Shown here: positions 1 through 5,830 of the stretch, one piece after another | How the letters are laid out: each line of letters opens with the position of its first letter | How positions within the stretch are numbered: position 1 is the stretch's first letter | Source of the DNA: a virus | DNA length: 5,830 nucleotides | Reading direction: 5' to 3' (one strand) | Virus record (IMG/VR): IMGVR_UViG_3300045988_031704 | Notes under the pieces: generated by a model | Seen by the model: only the letters and a program-made list of their open reading frames with translations | Told to the model about the DNA's origin: nothing | The model's database searches: none | Position numbers and translations under genes: made by a program

Positions 1-55
1 GGCTTTCCAACATGGTTTCTGAGTACGTCTAGGATAGATACCAGGTAACTATCTA
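1..55. repeat. 55-nt terminal direct repeat, identical to 5776-5830. This is assembly redundancy of a circular genome whose unit length is about 5775 nt.
   Basis: Exact 55/55 identity between 1-55 and 5776-5830 (ggctttccaacatggtttctgagtacgtctaggatagataccaggtaactatcta). The identity ends at both sides. Confidence 0.9.
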
Positions 56-158
56 TAAAAACTACCTGTGACCCGTCCTGGCAAGCGAATTCCTTTACTT
101 TGAAGTGCTGCCCTACTTTTTCGTTTGCGTCTGTGTCCATGATATAGCATTTAATCAT
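1..158 (-). CDS. 5' portion of a Peptidase_M15_3 (VanY / D-Ala-D-Ala carboxypeptidase-like zinc peptidase) gene, a candidate lysis enzyme. The ORF continues across the circular junction into 5544-5775. The start is either ATG 158..156 (MIKCYIMDTD...) or ATG 140..138.
   Basis: Hand translation of the minus strand gives MIKCYIMDTDANEKVGQHFKVKEFACQDGSQVVFIDSYLVSILDVLRNHVGKP..., open to position 1 in the same frame as the ORF entering from 5830. GAGGAA lies 10 nt upstream of ATG 158. The N-terminal region matches the family pattern K-x-EF-x-C-x-DGS ... L ... LR ... G-P. Confidence 0.8.
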   Translation of the reverse strand, partial: MIKCYIMDTDANEKVGQHFKVKEFACQDGSQVVFIDSYLVSILDVLRNHVGK

Positions 159-195
159 TCTTGTCAATTCCTCAAAAATTAAAAATTGAAATACA
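139..195 (-). promoter_or_regulatory. Candidate sigma70 promoter P2: a consensus -35 TTGACA (167..162), then either a 17-nt spacer to TATCAT (144..139) or a 15-nt spacer to TGcTATATC (extended -10, 149..141). It is preceded by an A/T-rich UP-like tract (aatttttaattttt, 168-195).
   Basis: Read directly on the minus strand: aatttttgaggaaTTGACAagaatgattaaatgcTATATCATgg. The predicted start (~132) falls inside the peptidase ORF, so this would be an internal promoter. Confidence 0.4.
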
Positions 196-254: not shown

Positions 255-284
255 ATTATACTACTTGTCAATAGGTTTTTTCAA
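255..284 (-). promoter_or_regulatory. Candidate sigma70 promoter P1: TTGAAA (284..279) - 18 nt - TATAAT (260..255), reading toward the peptidase gene.
   Basis: Perfect -10 hexamer and a 5/6 match for the -35. The predicted transcription start near 248 gives a ~90-nt leader to ATG 158. Confidence 0.45.
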
Positions 285-676: not shown

Positions 677-719
677 TGCGCGTGCGCGCGTGCGCGCTTC
701 GCGCGCGTGCGTACGCGCA
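677..719. repeat. GC-rich tract of about 43 nt, made of two runs of perfectly alternating purine/pyrimidine bases (677-697 and 700-719). The tract is Z-DNA prone and folds as an imperfect hairpin centred on gcgcgc-ttc-gcgcgc.
   Basis: tgcgcgtgcgcgcgtgcgcgc ttc gcgcgcgtgcgtacgcgca. The core 692-697/701-706 is a perfect 6-bp GC stem, extended by G-T/wobble-tolerant pairs. It is strikingly GC-rich against the AT-rich flanking sequence. Confidence 0.6.
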
Positions 720-738
720 GTAAAGATATATTTACTTG

Positions 739-756
739 ATAGACTGAATAGACTGA
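739..756. repeat. Tandem 9-mer ATAGACTGA x2. The flanking 11-mer TTACTTGATAG (732-742) recurs in the loop of the 780-811 hairpin (791-801).
   Basis: Direct reading: 739-747 and 748-756 are identical, and the 11-mer at 732-742 equals 791-801. Confidence 0.7.
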
Positions 757-779
757 TACATGGAGTCTTTAACGATAAT

Positions 780-811
780 AGCCCAGTACCTTACTTGATA
801 GGTACTGGGCT
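780..811 (-). terminator. Perfect 12-bp stem / 8-nt loop hairpin (agcccagtacct - tacttgat - aggtactgggct) 20 nt downstream of the rep stop. A candidate operon terminator, or a structural element of the replication origin.
   Basis: 780-791 is the exact reverse complement of 800-811. In mRNA sense the hairpin is followed by the moderately U-rich AUUAUCGUUAAAG. Confidence 0.55.
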
Positions 812-823
812 AGGTGACACCAC

Positions 824-840
824 GACACTTTTAAAGTGTC
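824..840. promoter_or_regulatory. 17-nt perfect palindrome gacacttt-t-aaagtgtc overlapping the rep (VP4) stop codon.
   Basis: 824-831 is the reverse complement of 833-840, and the rep stop TAA is at 833..831. Confidence 0.4.
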
Positions 841-1850
841 CCTCTCTTCTTCAGCTGCTTCTTTATTACTCTCTCTTTCGTTTTGCACTGTTCTGCAAAG
901 TCTGTGTTTTCGTACTTTAGTCGGTTTTCTGCGATCACTGCTGCTTGTCTGTTTTGTTTAATTCGCCACAATCTTTGTGGGTTTTCAGCTTCCATCATTT
1001 TTTCATAATAGCGTGGAATTTGTGCGCGTTTGCCGTTTGTGCATTGGATATACCCTTGCTTCCAGATTTTCGCTTTGTGTTCTTGATAGTAGCGATCTCC
1101 TAGGCCTGGTTTAAGGCTCATACATGCAAAAGGTTTTTGCTGTCCTAGATCGTAGTATACGTTTGCTTTTTGACCGTCAATTTCGTACATTTTTTTCGTG
1201 ACGTATCCCGCAACATATCTATAAGTCTCCGGTGCTGCTTGTGCTATCTGTATTTGACCCATGCCCCATAGGTCTTCAAGCCATTTACTTGTGAAATATC
1301 CGTTGTGTTGTATCTTGTACAGGTGCTTTAGATCCGTTGGTCGCCATCCATACAGTATCATATGATAATGCGGCCTTGCTGTCTGTTCTCCGTATTCTCC
1401 CGCCACAAAATAGCGTAATTTGCCCCTGTAAGCCTTTCTGAGGCGTTTTATGAGTTTTTGAACGTCAGTATATAGCAATGTTTGGACGCTTTCAGGGCGC
1501 TTCTCTCCCGGCTTCCAGACGTATTGTACTTTTCGCATGATTTCGCCTGTGTTTACTATCATGCCCGGTACATGATCATCATCATAAGTTAATGTGATAA
1601 ACCAAACTTCCTCTCTTGGATAGTCTCGTGCTTCTAATTCTATTCGTGTTGTCCAGTCCTCCCTCTGTCTGATTCTGCATCCGATACACTGCCCGCATGG
1701 TATCAACATGACATCTTTTCTATACATCAAATCTTCATATTTGAGCTGTTTCCCGCATATTTCAGAAAAGCGGGAGAGTGAATACACCCTCCCGCTAATG
1801 CTTTTATCGTTCGGGTTGTACAGCCTTATTAATGGCTTGTAGCAACTCAT
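831..1850 (-). CDS. VP4 replication initiation protein (rolling-circle Rep of Microviridae), 339 aa.
   Basis: Rolling-circle motifs are present: motif I FITLTY, motif II PHYHMILYG (HxH), motif III YRYVAGYVTKKM (catalytic Y...K). There is an N-terminal Cys cluster CGQCIGC. ATG 1850 overlaps the VP2 stop. Confidence 0.93.
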   Translation of the reverse strand: MSCYKPLIRLYNPNDKSISGRVYSLSRFSEICGKQLKYEDLMYRKDVMLIPCGQCIGCRIRQREDWTTRIELEARDYPREEVWFITLTYDDDHVPGMIVNTGEIMRKVQYVWKPGEKRPESVQTLLYTDVQKLIKRLRKAYRGKLRYFVAGEYGEQTARPHYHMILYGWRPTDLKHLYKIQHNGYFTSKWLEDLWGMGQIQIAQAAPETYRYVAGYVTKKMYEIDGQKANVYYDLGQQKPFACMSLKPGLGDRYYQEHKAKIWKQGYIQCTNGKRAQIPRYYEKMMEAENPQRLWRIKQNRQAAVIAENRLKYENTDFAEQCKTKERVIKKQLKKRGTL

Positions 1851-2710
1851 TTCAAATAATCACCCGGCTTTCGCTTTTCTCCGTAGCTTCCTGTTTTGTC
1901 TTGTGGTTTTATGCTTCTACTTTGTTCTGTGCCTTTTTCCGCCTTTGCTGTTGCATCCGTAATGGCCTTGTTTGTGTTGTTTCCTACTTCTGTAAGTGCC
2001 TTTTGCAGTCCGTATGGTGTCATGTGTGTTGTACTGAGCATTTGCTGCCAGCTTTGCGCAGCATTGTACCAGTCACTTGTACTCCAACTTGAGCTTGAGT
2101 ATGCATTCGGTACAAATCCACCGCTTCTGCTTACCCCTAGCGCGCTGCTGCTTGCAAGTCCCATGCTCGCACCGCTGATTGTTCCTGCTGATCCTCCCGG
2201 CGTGCTTGCTCCACCGTTTGAAAAAGCCAAGATTGGGTTAAGTCCTGCTTTTTTCATATCTTCAACTGCACGCTGGTATGCTGTGCTTGACATGTGTTCT
2301 TGCCATTCACGGTTTGCTAGTGCTTCTGCACTGTTGTAGTTCATTGCTACGCTGTTTTCAATGTGGTTGTATACGCCTTGCATGATTGCTTGTAAGGTGT
2401 TGTAACCCATCTGTTTAAGCATACTCTGACTGTTGTATTTACCTTGCATGGCTGCCTCTTGCCCTTGGTATGCGTATGCTTGCTTTAGCCAGTCGTTTAC
2501 TTGTTGAACGTTTGTGCCTGATTGGCTTCCGCTTTCTGAGTGCCCGCCGCCCTGGCTTATACTTCCGCCCTGGCTTTGGCTGTTACCTTCTTGTCCGTAT
2601 CCGCCAAATGCTCCGGCAATGTTTTTTGCTGCTCCGGCGAATGTTCCGATTGTATTTGCTACGTTTCCTGCTACGTTTAGTGCTGTTAAGAATCCTGATA
2701 ACGCTCCCAT
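1847..2710 (-). CDS. VP2 minor capsid / DNA pilot protein, 287 aa, with Gly/Ser/Gln-rich low-complexity segments.
   Basis: Contains the conserved gokushovirus VP2 core ...SSTAYQRAVEDMKKAGLNPILAF (the AYQRAV-DMK-AGLNP-LA motif). Its low-complexity composition and position between VP1 and VP4 are typical. The stop overlaps the VP4 start (ATGA at 1847-1850). Confidence 0.85.
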   Translation of the reverse strand: MGALSGFLTALNVAGNVANTIGTFAGAAKNIAGAFGGYGQEGNSQSQGGSISQGGGHSESGSQSGTNVQQVNDWLKQAYAYQGQEAAMQGKYNSQSMLKQMGYNTLQAIMQGVYNHIENSVAMNYNSAEALANREWQEHMSSTAYQRAVEDMKKAGLNPILAFSNGGASTPGGSAGTISGASMGLASSSALGVSRSGGFVPNAYSSSSWSTSDWYNAAQSWQQMLSTTHMTPYGLQKALTEVGNNTNKAITDATAKAEKGTEQSRSIKPQDKTGSYGEKRKPGDYLK

Positions 2711-2738
2711 TTAAAAATAGCCCGGATTTCTCCGGGCT
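2711..2738 (-). terminator. Stem-loop between VP1 and VP2: 8-bp stem AGCCCGGA/TCCGGGCT with a GAAA tetraloop in mRNA sense, followed by AUUUUUAA. A candidate leaky intrinsic terminator that could also reposition the VP2 SD next to its start codon.
   Basis: Plus strand 2719-2726 agcccgga pairs perfectly with 2731-2738 tccgggct. A U-rich run separates the stem from the VP2 ATG at 2710. The SD GGAGG (2744..2740) lies immediately 5' of the stem. Confidence 0.55.
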
Positions 2739-2748
2739 TCCTCCTTTC

Positions 2749-4422
2749 TTACAGTTTGTACAGGCCCGGCACACTGTACAGCGGCATCCGCCTTGTGGTT
2801 TTGTTTGCTACGCGGATTGCTCCGAAAAATTGGGGTTCATTTTGCACGATGAGCGTGCGCGCAATTTCGATTTTTCCTTCTTCCATCCAGTCCTGTGACA
2901 GCGTTGGTACGTTTGAATAGTTGTCAGCATAATGCCAGAAGTCCAGCGTTCCTGTTGCGTTGCTTCTCATGAGGCCAGATACCCGGTTTGGCTTCATTCT
3001 GTAGTCTGCCCATGCTTCTTGATACCCGAAGGTTTCTTCATCTGTTGCATTGCCGGTTAACATGATTTCTTTCTTTTTGACAGGCTGCTCGCCTATGTTT
3101 GCAAACTGCGGTACGTAGTAGTCAAGTCTGTCACTTCTGCTCCAGAAGCGTTCAAGTCCTTGCTGATAGCTGCGATTGTGTCGTACACAACATACACCGA
3201 TCACAAAACCGTGCTCTTCAAACGATTTGGCAAAACTGCTTTCATTGATTGGTGTTACTGACATTGCACCAGTTTCACCAATAGGCGTGTCATCTTGGCT
3301 CTGCTGTCCGCTGGTCTGCACGATTTGGTTAATGTTTACATGGTATCTGCCGCCGCCGAGGTATTCCGGCACCTGTACGGTTTTATCACTGATAACCACG
3401 TCCCATAGTGCTTGTACCTGTTCGCGGTAACGAGTGCCGCCGCGTGCCAGTGCCTCATAGTACTGCTGCACTGCTACGGCCTTTCGTAAGTCGTTGATGG
3501 TTGCTGCTGCTACACTGCTAAGGTCTGCACCTAGGTATACTACATTATGTGTCGTGTCAGTATCGTCTCCGATGGCTAAGTATGCTGATCCGGTGTTTCC
3601 ATCTTCCGCGATTGCATACAGTCTGTCCTTGACGTTGCTCGGGTTTGTGCTTCCGTCAAAAAAGCTGTTTGCATATAGTGGTGCTTTTTCGTTAAATTTA
3701 TCGTTTGTGTATCCGGAAATTCTTGCATTGCCTTGCATTGGCAGCGTAACTTCCGGCCCGCGCTGAGGCTGCGGCAGACAGCTTGTGAAGTAGTCATGGA
3801 ACTTGTTTACCGGCAACAGATTTCCGCCTTTGTACGCGTTGTTGTCTGCTTCTTGCACCCAAGTTTCATTTCCAAATTCGTACAACACGTTGCTATCGTC
3901 TGTTTTTAGCACTGCTTCGTTATTTACGTTTTCGTCTCTGAAAAATTCATTCCAGATTTTTACGTACGCTCTCACGGGCAGTGCGTTAATCGTAAACGAT
4001 TTTTTGATCTTGGTTGGTACTCCCATATAGTCTAGTATGGATCTTTCGTCTGGTTTTGGTTTGCTATCCGTTCCGTTGATTACGATTTTTGGCGTTGCGT
4101 ATTCTTTTTTTGGCATCCATGGTGTTGCTTCTACTTCTCCCATGAAGTGCTTAAAGTTGTCCCACAGAATTCTATTAGGACAGTAGAAGTAGTAGAAGTC
4201 AATGAATGCATCATCCATTACCGGGTACTTCGGTGTGCTCATGCGGATAATAGCTGAAGTATTCACGCTGAAGGTATCGCCCGGTAATACCTCGTCAACA
4301 TAAAATGGAATCAGCTTGCCAGAATCGAATGTTGTTAAGATCGTCTGGTCTCGGTTAAACCGCGTCCGGCTTGCTTTCATTTCCGGGATTTCATTAAAGT
4401 GTCTTTCATTGTTTCTATTCAC
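2749..4422 (-). CDS. Major capsid protein VP1 (Microviridae F-protein family), 557 aa from GTG 4422, or 543 aa if ATG 4380 is used.
   Basis: The N-terminal region ...MKASRTRFNRDQTILTTFDSGKLIPFYVDEVLPGDTF is the canonical gokushovirus VP1 start (RxRF...TTFDxGxLIPxxVDEVLPGDTF). The size is typical of Gokushovirinae VP1. GTG 4422 overlaps the upstream stop (GTGA) with AGGAGG 7 nt upstream. The first in-frame ATG is at 4380. Confidence 0.95.
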   Translation of the reverse strand: MNRNNERHFNEIPEMKASRTRFNRDQTILTTFDSGKLIPFYVDEVLPGDTFSVNTSAIIRMSTPKYPVMDDAFIDFYYFYCPNRILWDNFKHFMGEVEATPWMPKKEYATPKIVINGTDSKPKPDERSILDYMGVPTKIKKSFTINALPVRAYVKIWNEFFRDENVNNEAVLKTDDSNVLYEFGNETWVQEADNNAYKGGNLLPVNKFHDYFTSCLPQPQRGPEVTLPMQGNARISGYTNDKFNEKAPLYANSFFDGSTNPSNVKDRLYAIAEDGNTGSAYLAIGDDTDTTHNVVYLGADLSSVAAATINDLRKAVAVQQYYEALARGGTRYREQVQALWDVVISDKTVQVPEYLGGGRYHVNINQIVQTSGQQSQDDTPIGETGAMSVTPINESSFAKSFEEHGFVIGVCCVRHNRSYQQGLERFWSRSDRLDYYVPQFANIGEQPVKKKEIMLTGNATDEETFGYQEAWADYRMKPNRVSGLMRSNATGTLDFWHYADNYSNVPTLSQDWMEEGKIEIARTLIVQNEPQFFGAIRVANKTTRRMPLYSVPGLYKL

Positions 4423-4817
4423 TTTTCCTCCTCCTTTGTTTCAGGTTCTGCCGCTGGTTTTTCTGCTGCCTTTTTTTGCAGCTCCTCTAGTTTCATGGCG
4501 TTTACCTGTGCGGTCGCCACCATGCGGTGATACTCATGGATGTTTTGCGGGAATTCCGTAATATCCGTGTATGTACCGTTTAATGCTCCTTCTGACAGGC
4601 TATTTAGAAACTGCGGGTCAAAACTTGCTTTTCGGACAATGTTTTTGATATCACATTCATCCGCATAGCTTTCAATCTCCTGTTGGATATCGATTGGTGC
4701 AGTTTCTTGTAGTGTTTCTTCTCCTTTTTCGTCCTTCGTCCAAACGTACTGTTTTCGAAGTTTTTCTCCTGATTTAGAAAAGAAGGGCTCTCGCCCTTCT
4801 TCGTATCGTTTATTCAT
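4419..4817 (-). CDS. Acidic 132-aa protein, a candidate internal scaffolding protein (VP3-like) of Microviridae.
   Basis: SD GGGAGGG lies 8 nt upstream of ATG 4817. The protein is highly acidic with a C-terminal KKAAEKPAAEPETKEEEK tail, and sits immediately upstream of and overlapping VP1, as VP3 does in gokushoviruses. The assignment rests on size, charge and synteny rather than a recognised motif. Confidence 0.5.
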   Translation of the reverse strand: MNKRYEEGREPFFSKSGEKLRKQYVWTKDEKGEETLQETAPIDIQQEIESYADECDIKNIVRKASFDPQFLNSLSEGALNGTYTDITEFPQNIHEYHRMVATAQVNAMKLEELQKKAAEKPAAEPETKEEEK

Positions 4818-5049
4818 GCGGTTTGCCCTCCCATACCTTCTCCTTGCCGTTCGTGAACGTGCCTAGCTCGTCTTCAAACACTGCCAGCTTATAGCCGGTG
4901 TAGTCGCCGGGCCCCTGCCCAACAAACGTTTTTTCATCCTTCGCCATTACGTTGCACATACGTGCAAAGGTTGCACTATTCTTGCTCTCGCCTACCCATG
5001 CATAGCACTTTGCTACGTCATCCCATAGGCCAAAATATTCATGCTTCAT
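4810..5049 (-). CDS. Hypothetical protein of 79 aa (82 aa if GTG 5058 is used). It is a candidate VP5-like protein by position alone, immediately upstream of the VP3-like gene as in gokushovirus gene order.
   Basis: ORF MKHEYFGLWDDVAKCYAWVGESKNSATFARMCNVMAKDEKTFVGQGPGDYTGYKLAVFEDELGTFTNGKEKVWEGKPHE. Its stop overlaps the next gene's start (ATGAATAA at 4810-4817). A purine-rich AAAGGAAAGTGGA lies upstream. I do not recognise any sequence-level homology. Confidence 0.4.
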   Translation of the reverse strand: MKHEYFGLWDDVAKCYAWVGESKNSATFARMCNVMAKDEKTFVGQGPGDYTGYKLAVFEDELGTFTNGKEKVWEGKPHE

Positions 5050-5147
5050 GATATCCACTTTCCTTTCTTTTACAGCCGGATGCCGCCGCGCATAGGCTTT
5101 TGACTGAGGTTGATGGTTTTGGTTTTTCGTGCGGTTACGTTGAACAC

Positions 5148-5543: not shown

Positions 5544-5830
5544 TTACATCCCCTTTCTGTATTTTTTGGTGCGTGTGTCGATGTGTACCCACGTATTATA
5601 CACGATTATGCCGCATTCATCCGGAATTATTTTGTTCAGTTTGTTGGCGATTTCTTTTGCGGTCATGCCATTAACCCGGATATCTGCTGCCATTCCTCGC
5701 ATATGGTATGAGTACTTTGCACCGCCTACTGCTTTATTCCTTGTTGGTGTCCGGTATCCGCTGTTGATGATTACAGGCTTTCCAACATGGTTTCTGAGTA
5801 CGTCTAGGATAGATACCAGGTAACTATCTA
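5544..5830 (-). CDS. 3' portion of the same Peptidase_M15_3 gene. It carries the zinc-ligand motifs, and its stop TAA is at 5546..5544. Positions 5776-5830 duplicate 1-55.
   Basis: Minus-strand translation reads ...VIINSGYRTPTRNKAVGGAKYSYHMRGMAADIRVNGMTAKEIANKLNKIIPDECGIIVYNTWVHIDTRTKKYRKGM*. The SGYR...N..VGG...S.H..G.AADI ... VHID signature matches the H-x6-D ... H zinc site of the M15 (VanY-type) family. The full protein would be about 123-129 aa. Confidence 0.85.
   Translation of the reverse strand, partial: DSYLVSILDVLRNHVGKPVIINSGYRTPTRNKAVGGAKYSYHMRGMAADIRVNGMTAKEIANKLNKIIPDECGIIVYNTWVHIDTRTKKYRKGM
5776..5830. repeat. Second copy of the 55-nt terminal redundancy (circular junction).
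   Basis: Identical to 1-55. Confidence 0.9.

Follow-up and report, generated by a model that had tools for sequence, protein, structure and literature searches.

The VP1-VP2 junction

The DNA analysed here, IMG/VR record IMGVR_UViG_3300045988_031704 (the whole stretch of 5,830 nucleotides (nt) is called the window below), belongs to a gokushovirus, and all of its recognisable genes lie on the minus strand. Our subject is a 44-nt element (2751..2708, minus strand) that joins the gene for the major capsid protein VP1 to the gene for the DNA pilot protein VP2, reading UAA-GAAAGGAGGA-AGCCCGGA-GAAA-UCCGGGCU-AUUUUUAA-AUG in mRNA sense. A first-pass annotation had described this layout, which proved exact when followed letter by letter on the minus strand, and had proposed that its hairpin both attenuates transcription after the capsid gene and ties in the ribosome-binding sequence of VP2, two suggestions that comparison with relatives backs in both halves. 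The features at the junction are as follows.

4422..2749, minus strand: VP1 major capsid gene (Pfam Phage_F, 1e-136; phrog_514), upstream of the element
2751..2749, minus strand: VP1 stop UAA (TAA in 81/81 loci of the window's clade)
2748..2739, minus strand: Shine-Dalgarno (SD) block GAAAGGAGGA, with its GGAGG core at 2744..2740, a linear 29 nt from the VP2 AUG
2738..2731, minus strand: hairpin 5' arm AGCCCGGA, covarying with 2719..2726
2730..2727, minus strand: loop GAAA, variable among relatives
2726..2719, minus strand: hairpin 3' arm UCCGGGCU (DNA TCCGGGCT), covarying with the 5' arm
2718..2711, minus strand: U-run and A/U-only spacer AUUUUUAA (DNA ATTTTTAA), between the hairpin and the AUG
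2710..2708, minus strand: VP2 start AUG
2710..1847, minus strand: VP2 DNA pilot protein gene (phrog_8742 pilot protein, 2e-126), downstream of the element

The stem comprises 8 base pairs (bp), six of them G-C, closed by the 4-nt loop, and in the window its two arms are perfect inverted repeats of each other. The hairpin begins 10 nt past the VP1 UAA, a spacing that is constant across the window's clade. As for the VP2 start, the PHROG profile alignment begins at residue 3, an in-frame UAA precedes the AUG, and the public annotation of KX513868, an 84%-identical genome, places the VP2 ATG at the same position.

Folding and covariation of the hairpin

The hairpin alone folds at -15.3 kcal/mol and the 44-nt element at -17.3 kcal/mol (z = -4.4; 0/200 shuffles fold as well), but in a looser context of 81 nt the z-score is only -1.2, so that single-sequence thermodynamics is not decisive alone. 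That the element is more than a chance structure follows instead from comparison with relatives. These were gathered without bias towards the stem by two routes: VP1 homology, which gave 80 IMG/VR loci at 72-87% VP1 identity, and a DNA pattern that fixes only the flanks (TAAGAAAGGAGGA-N19-23-ATTTT). A single, very large collection of gut metagenomes (IMG 3300045988) supplied most of the relatives, and junction counts here and below are not phylogenetically independent.

The element is present in all 81 genomes of the window's clade. The flank pattern has 111 matches, 68 of which follow a VP1-like C-terminus and without exception (68/68) enclose a G+C hairpin. The other 43, on unrelated contigs, enclose none (0/43), and 35 of them have an ordinary start codon 4-12 nt past GGAGGA; they are a useful natural control for the hairpin.

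Among 47 distinct junction sequences, 96.3% of stem cells are paired, and two-sided changes occur at five of the eight pairs. Cells with two-sided changes number 38, compared with 7.6 ± 2.2 in shuffles (0/500 reach 38), and in controls with the 3' partner displaced by 1-3 columns, 12-53% of cells pair. At least 13 stem variants are found among the relatives, including AGCCGGGA/UCCCGGCU, AGGCCGGA/UCCGGCCU, AGCUCGGA/UCCGAGCU, AGCCCCGC/GCGGGGCU, AGCCUCGC/GCGAGGCU and GCCUGGG/CCCAGGC, and one of them has a U-G pair, as only the sense strand would allow. There are also at least eight loop variants, namely GAAA, GAGA, CAAAA, AAAAA, AAAA, TTTT, GTTTTG and CAAAGA. The GAAA tetraloop singled out in the first-pass annotation is thus present in the window but not conserved among relatives, and since the loop varies freely, its GNRA character is incidental.

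The sequences that flank the stem behave differently from their surroundings. Pairwise identity in the SD block is 0.98-1.0 per column, with the exception of one column at 0.84 (GGAGG to GGAGA); the corresponding values are 0.61 at third positions of the last 50 VP1 codons and about 0.5 at any position of the first 50 VP2 codons. Conservation of both the T-run and the GGAGG block far exceeds that of neighbouring synonymous sites, which points to purifying selection. For the hairpin, the comparisons leave little room for doubt that it is under selection on the sense strand. A scan of the whole window with Rfam covariance models gave no match at 2708-2751, its only match being a chance-level one to Termite-leu (1715-1800, E = 0.71).

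An extension of the helix by G-U pairing between GGAGG and UUUUU appears in the minimum-free-energy structure, where it contributes only about 1 kcal/mol, but not in the centroid; no function is assigned to it. An anti-terminator was also considered, as Pro-Gly codons of VP1 (CCGGGC, ~2767..2762) repeat a stretch of the 3' arm exactly and might pair with the 5' arm in its place, but it was rejected because synonymous positions of VP1 do not covary consistently with the stem variants.

Junction layouts among relatives

The layout of the window, in the order stop, SD, hairpin, T-run and ATG, is referred to as type C. It recurs in three further capsid lineages, the L159 and L112 groups (VP1 40-42% identical) and the L090 clade (45-46%). 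The L192 clade, to which KT264755 corresponds (VP1 45% identical), has other layouts: most members are of type A, with stop, SD and ATG but no hairpin, and others are of type B, with stop, G+C hairpin, T-run, SD, 4-7 nt and ATG, their hairpins being unrelated in sequence. Cultured gokushoviruses also vary, since Chp2 has an SD beside the VP2 ATG without a hairpin, whereas in phiMH2K a hairpin precedes the SD.

The junctions of the L159, L112 and L090 lineages are about 82% identical in nucleotides to that of the window despite capsids that are only 40-46% identical, and the L192 clade, with its conventional junctions, nests among the type C clades in VP1 identity. This likeness across clades would reflect either a very old, strongly constrained element or exchange of the junction between lineages. 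The idea that the VP2 genes behind the junction are unrelated modules was withdrawn, as BLASTP finds all 74 complete VP2 proteins to be homologous (53-100% identity), with their divergence concentrated in the N-termini.

Placement of the Shine-Dalgarno sequence

VP2 had been said to have no SD of its own, and duplex energies with the anti-SD sequence bear this out: among duplexes that end no more than 12 nt from the VP2 AUG, the best has -2.5 kcal/mol, compared with -11.5 kcal/mol for the block that ends 28 nt upstream. VP3, VP1 and VP4 have anti-SD sites of -10 to -12 kcal/mol at 3-8 nt from their starts, and VP2 is the sole major gene in the window without an adjacent SD. The junction has the sequence features of a split SD, namely a strong SD at a linear distance at which it would not function, none in the normal position, a stable and conserved hairpin lying wholly within the SD-AUG spacer, and a spacing that falls within the functional range once the hairpin is discounted. 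With the hairpin removed, GGAGG and AUG are 1 + 8 = 9 nt apart in the window and 9-13 nt apart across type C, whereas the canonical GGAGG-to-ATG spacing in type A and B junctions of relatives is 4-7 nt. The 9 nt of the first-pass annotation is therefore correct as arithmetic, but its word "ideal" overstates the case: the bridged spacing is 2-4 nt longer than canonical here and is better described as functional-range than as optimal, much like the 11 nt bridged in T4 gene 25 (PMC3014915).

The position of the SD relative to the hairpin was surveyed in 185 hairpin-bearing VP1-VP2 junctions from four clades, together with 72 hairpin-less ones, an SD being called at an anti-SD duplex of -7 kcal/mol or better. 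The SD lies only upstream of the hairpin in 167 of the 185, only downstream in 12, on both sides in none and on neither side in six. Five of these six have a weak SD-like block at -5.9 kcal/mol, and the sixth (L256) has GAAAGGAG downstream of the hairpin, more than 16 nt from the called ATG. An adjacent SD is found in 69/72 hairpin-less junctions. As the SD is on one side and almost never absent, VP2 appears to need an SD in these viruses.

The L090 clade provides a natural relocation of the SD. Its majority sequence is TAA (A)GAAAGGAG.. AGCCGGG(G)-loop-CCCGGCT ATTTT... ATG, whereas six of its loci (L339, L343, L346, L348, L354 and L355) keep the homologous hairpin AGCCGGG-TCAAAA-CCCGGCT but have CACAAAAACAA (cacaaaaacaa) in place of the purine block upstream of it. 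These same loci have AAAGGAG 5-6 nt before the ATG, and their hairpin-ATG distance is 20-22 nt rather than 8-10 nt; VP1 identity among the members concerned is 84-87%. Thus, the hairpin does not need the purine block, and VP2 seems to need an SD on one side or the other. Natural variation of this kind may serve only as a surrogate for the mutational dependence of VP2 translation on the stem and the distant SD. On balance, we lean towards the view that the upstream GGAGG serves as the SD of VP2 through the folded hairpin.

Terminator signature

The hairpin with its U-tract had been noted as an intrinsic-terminator look-alike, and here the anatomy, the polarity of the T-run and a terminator scan agree. 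The stem is G+C-rich and covarying with a short loop, a U-rich tract (AUUUUUAA) lies directly 3' of it and on the sense side only, and the whole is placed past the stop codon, where ribosomes cannot melt the hairpin. A scan with a terminator consensus gives only two minus-strand matches in the window, the junction and a 13-bp hairpin after VP4. Across the surveyed junctions, TTTT follows the hairpin within 10 nt on its 3' side in 172/185, compared with AAAA 5' of the hairpin in 11/185, and all 167 junctions with an upstream SD have at least four T in the 8 nt after the hairpin. The T-run adjoins the hairpin rather than the AUG when the SD is downstream, lying between hairpin and SD in type B, and TTTT occurs in 11/72 hairpin-less junctions. 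Moreover, stringent terminator-like sites in the 81 genomes number 203 on the sense strand versus 38 on the antisense strand, and unrelated hairpin and T-run units occupy the same VP1-VP2 junction in other clades and in prophages.

The coding strand has strong promoter-like sites only at 284..255 and 167..139, and a weak one inside VP4; the promoter scan of the window gave none between the hairpin and VP2/VP4. As no promoter-like site precedes these essential genes, they would be reached by read-through, and any termination would be partial; the short U-run (5 U) likewise fits a weak terminator. Hence the hairpin and T-run probably constitute a partial terminator. The two strong sites are tandem, near-consensus and on the minus strand, in the non-coding region downstream of VP4; they read TTGAAA-18-TATAAT and TTGACA-17-TATCAT, with 11/12 matches each to a sigma-70-type consensus, which may not be that of the host.

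Interpretation and alternatives

Somewhat in preference to the other accounts taken together, we read the 44 nt as one element that would act both as a leaky intrinsic terminator and as a hairpin-bridged split SD. RNA polymerase leaving the capsid gene would transcribe the 8-bp G+C hairpin and AUUUUU, and a fraction of the polymerases would stop there. The outcome would be an excess of VP5-VP3-VP1 transcripts with a protective 3' hairpin, while the remaining fraction of polymerases would reach VP2 and VP4. In the read-through mRNA the hairpin would refold and loop out 20 of the 29 nt between GGAGG and the VP2 AUG, so that the SD and the AUG, now about 9 nt from each other, could both be engaged by a 30S subunit or by a ribosome that has only just finished VP1. 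Translation of VP4 would be coupled to that of VP2 through their AUGA overlap and would also draw on the SD of VP4 itself. We infer from the comparative patterns above that polymerases do terminate here, though only in part, and that VP2 initiation is driven by the upstream SD via the folded hairpin.

A stronger form of this proposal, which we put forward tentatively and at slightly less than even chances, is that the terminator hairpin is an obligatory part of the ribosome-binding site of VP2. The 44-nt element would then fix the capsid-to-pilot ratio both transcriptionally and translationally, and it would have been kept almost unchanged across gut gokushovirus lineages with capsids down to 40% identity, by deep conservation or by junction exchange. 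If so, VP2, and VP4 by coupling, would be made only from transcripts that have escaped termination and in which the hairpin has refolded.

Several points weigh against the combined terminator and split SD. The bridged spacing exceeds the canonical one (9-13 versus 4-7 nt), and the end of the helix adds physical distance; the move of the SD within the L090 clade may be a single event; and the A/U-rich, unstructured start region of VP2 might permit SD-independent initiation. The U-run is short, with five U after an A, none of the other three conserved hairpins in the genome is as weak as the one at the junction, and many related gokushoviruses have no hairpin here, so that attenuation is not universal. 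In addition, the surveyed junctions share phylogeny, the host's rules for terminators, promoters and SD sites are assumed, and the support is comparative throughout.

The element might, alternatively, be a terminator or 3'-end stabiliser only, with VP2 starting via its A/U-rich leader or by re-initiation and GGAGG conserved for some other reason such as terminator context. Its canonical terminator anatomy and the long bridged spacing would suit this account, as would the low copy number of VP2, for which weak initiation could suffice. An adenosine directly upstream of a G-C hairpin is known to improve termination (bioRxiv 10.64898/2026.07.06.736697), and 38/47 variants have an A in that position. 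However, six loci keep the hairpin and T-rich tail without the purine block, and exactly these have gained a downstream SD. The SD counts for the two sides of the hairpin (both in 0/185, neither in 6/185) and for hairpin-less junctions (69/72) also speak against it, for a terminator alone leaves the pattern of an SD on one side and never on both unexplained. We regard this account as unlikely, and rather more so the converse one, in which the hairpin sets VP2 translation by bridging or by limiting access, without useful termination, and the T-run is merely a spacer. The data on SD position would be accommodated by a purely translational structure, the U-run is short and begins with A, and many relatives manage without the hairpin. 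Yet junctions with a downstream SD keep hairpin and T-run although the bridging role is gone, and in them the T-run stays on the hairpin, apart from the AUG (TTTTTGAAAGGAG...ATG). Furthermore, TTTT is rare in hairpin-less junctions, and unrelated hairpin and T-run units recur at this place in prophages of Oscillibacter, Lachnospiraceae and Enterobacteriaceae.

An explanation that the first-pass annotation had not considered is that the hairpin acts on the single-stranded DNA genome, for example in priming complementary-strand synthesis. The packaged strand of Microviridae has mRNA polarity, so the same hairpin would be present in virion DNA (-10.2 kcal/mol, z = -4.5). Covarying intergenic hairpins of other Microviridae have been interpreted in just this way (PMC9865509). 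Nevertheless, an element of 20 nt whose loop is free to vary offers no surface for sequence-specific recognition, priming would call for neither the polar T-run nor an SD that changes sides, the hairpin is missing altogether from many relatives, and the 13-bp hairpin with an invariant loop at 812..779 is a better candidate. A function in single-stranded DNA thus seems improbable as the explanation of the element, although it would not exclude the RNA functions. Least probable of all is that the hairpin reflects a palindrome bound by protein in the double-stranded replicative form, or an inverted repeat that arose by chance: the arms are indeed a perfect inverted repeat in the window, but the variant stems keep pairing rather than sequence, which makes a protein site in duplex DNA unlikely, the U-G variant breaks the dyad symmetry of the DNA, and no shuffle folds as well.

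Comparison with known systems

The nearest parallels to a leaky terminator combined with a bridged SD come from phages T4 and phiX174. In the split sites of T4, a hairpin shortens the SD-AUG distance from 22 to 5 nt (gene 38) and from 27 to 11 nt (gene 25) (PMC3014915). The gokushovirus junction resembles these genes in having a strong SD that is linearly too far from the start (27 and 22 nt in T4, 29 nt here), a hairpin within the spacer that restores a functional distance (11 and 5 nt in T4, 9 nt here) and conservation within a phage clade together with absence from more distant relatives (PMC3014915). By contrast, the putative bridging hairpin of the window has the full anatomy of an intrinsic terminator directly after a stop codon, whereas a review of the T4 hairpins is silent on any U-run or termination (PMC3014915). 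In addition, the T4 cases were proven by mutagenesis and dimethyl sulfate probing, and the gokushovirus case is proposed from sequence.

The terminators TJ, TF and TG of phiX174 each block only 20-40% of transcription (bioRxiv 10.1101/2020.03.05.979765), and an analogy to such leaky terminators, drawn in the first-pass annotation, seems apt in placement and in read-through logic. Like TJ, TF, TG and TH, the element is found in Microviridae as an intergenic hairpin and U-run after structural genes, and downstream genes would need read-through, giving stepwise falling transcript levels as in phiX174 (bioRxiv 10.1101/2020.03.05.979765). There is no sequence homology between the two systems, however, and here the SD lies upstream of the terminator hairpin. 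In phiX174 the SD of the next gene lies downstream of the terminator, as it does in the downstream-SD gokushovirus junctions. Compared with conventional gokushovirus junctions, the element sits between the same genes and in the same position, with a homologous hairpin in the L090 clade, but the order of SD and hairpin is reversed relative to junctions that read stop, hairpin, T-run, SD and ATG.

A further hairpin region in phiX174, the primosome assembly (n') site, lies just before gene G and after the capsid gene F (PMC9865509). It is likewise intergenic and follows a microvirus capsid gene (PMC9865509), but it acts on single-stranded DNA and needs a specific hairpin sequence. In place of the specific recognised hairpin of a phiX174-type primosome or complementary-strand origin, the window has a 20-nt element that is variable in loop and stem. 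At the level of sequence, the element has every feature expected of a leaky terminator as found in microviruses and every one expected of a split ribosome-binding site of the T4 type; it would thus combine two known tricks in a new way and is not a new kind of system.

To our knowledge, split SD sites have been documented for very few genes, with T4 genes 25 and 38 as the textbook cases. The literature searched on gokushoviruses contained nothing on terminators, regulatory RNA hairpins or SD sites, nor on this element. If the combined terminator and split SD is borne out, it would constitute a large natural family of at least 168 genomes in four capsid clades, from human and animal gut phages, and its roughly 80 natural sequence variants, along with the natural relocation of the SD as a control, would allow one to study how the ribosome copes with an SD and AUG that are separated by a hairpin. 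For a genome of about 5.8 kb, this would also be a very compact way of setting the stoichiometry of structural proteins. There are practical consequences as well: gene callers and ribosome-binding-site models that scan 5-15 nt upstream would score the VP2 start as SD-less, and terminator predictors would, if the split SD is real, place the transcript end inside a functional ribosome-binding site.

Integrated relatives and hosts

A first scan of bacterial genomes for relatives of the window gave no match, but a scan with a profile did detect integrated relatives (VP1 38-46% identical), most of them in Clostridia. Their hosts include Oscillibacter sp. PC13, Muriventricola aceti and Phascolarctobacterium faecium DSM 14760, and others are in metagenome-assembled genomes (MAGs) of Peptostreptococcaceae, Lachnospiraceae and Christensenella; the loci, among them L390, L391, L393, L396, L402, L411, L414 and L444, lie on long bacterial contigs. 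Capsid genes within such long contigs of Clostridia and relatives are probably integrated prophages. All integrated relatives have conventional junctions, of type B in Oscillibacter, Lachnospiraceae and an enterobacterium (Enterobacteriaceae) and of type A in the other Clostridia prophages, whereas window-type junctions are confined to free contigs of about 5.7 kb and to fragments that were binned into MAGs. From this distribution, hosts among the Bacillota may be suspected for this part of the subfamily. Clostridia as hosts would presumably fit the long GAAAGGAGG complementarity to a CCUCCUUUC 16S 3' end.

Genome organisation and other hairpins

The two ends of the window (1..55 and 5776..5830) are a 55-nt exact terminal direct repeat, and these identical 55-base ends indicate that the window is a complete circular gokushovirus genome of about 5,775 nt. 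Its nearest GenBank records are gokushoviruses from human, pig and monkey gut, with 84-85% nucleotide identity over 81-88% of the genome. Besides VP1 and VP2, the following genes are recognised.

5058..4810, minus strand: ORF5/VP5-like
4817..4419, minus strand: VP3 scaffold
1850..831, minus strand: VP4 replication initiator

The VP2 stop and VP4 start overlap as AUGA at 1850..1847 and VP3 and VP1 as GUGA at 4422..4419 (both minus strand), and the VP3 start overlaps the end of VP5 by 8 nt. Four-base start/stop overlaps of this kind, with the VP3/VP5 overlap, are typical of translational coupling.

Within the first 15 codons of VP3, 10 nt past the VP5 stop (4812..4810), lies a hairpin at 4802..4776 (minus strand), GAAGGGC-GAGA-GCCCUUC, which can be extended to 10 bp (-16.5 kcal/mol), is followed by UUUUCU and is found in 73/81 clade genomes. 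It covaries at an amino-acid cost, GAA..UUC (Glu..Phe) alternating with GAG..CUC (Glu..Leu), and it has the look of a second terminator-like unit, placed as TJ is in phiX174. Another hairpin lies in VP4 codons 19-27, 51 nt past the VP2 stop (1796..1769, minus strand), with 12 bp, AGCGGGAGGGUG-UAUU-CACUCUCCCGCU, followed by UUUCUGAA. It folds at -22.9 kcal/mol (z = -9.3), is found in 65/81 genomes with compensatory changes, and, having 1-2 G-U pairs, can form on the sense strand only; it is possibly a third attenuator before the replication gene.

The hairpin at 812..779 (minus strand), 18 nt past the VP4 stop, has 13 bp (-24 kcal/mol), a few compensatory changes in its stem and, in the window, a tail that is not U-rich. 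A scan at this position gave 42 hairpins, five of them unrelated, and its 8-nt loop ATCAAGTA is invariant in 37/37 recovered versions, an invariance that speaks for recognition by a protein more than for a plain terminator. Its 11-mer CTATCAAGTAA recurs 59 nt downstream, at 742..732. TATCAAGT is the reverse complement of ACTTGATA, which we take to be the core of the phiX174 origin, and the hairpin is possibly a replication origin or nick site. Finally, the non-coding region holds a G+C-rich, largely alternating purine/pyrimidine tract, GCGCGTACGCACGCGCGCGAAGCGCGCAC, at 717..690 (minus strand), and similar CGCG-rich palindromes occur at the equivalent place in relatives.

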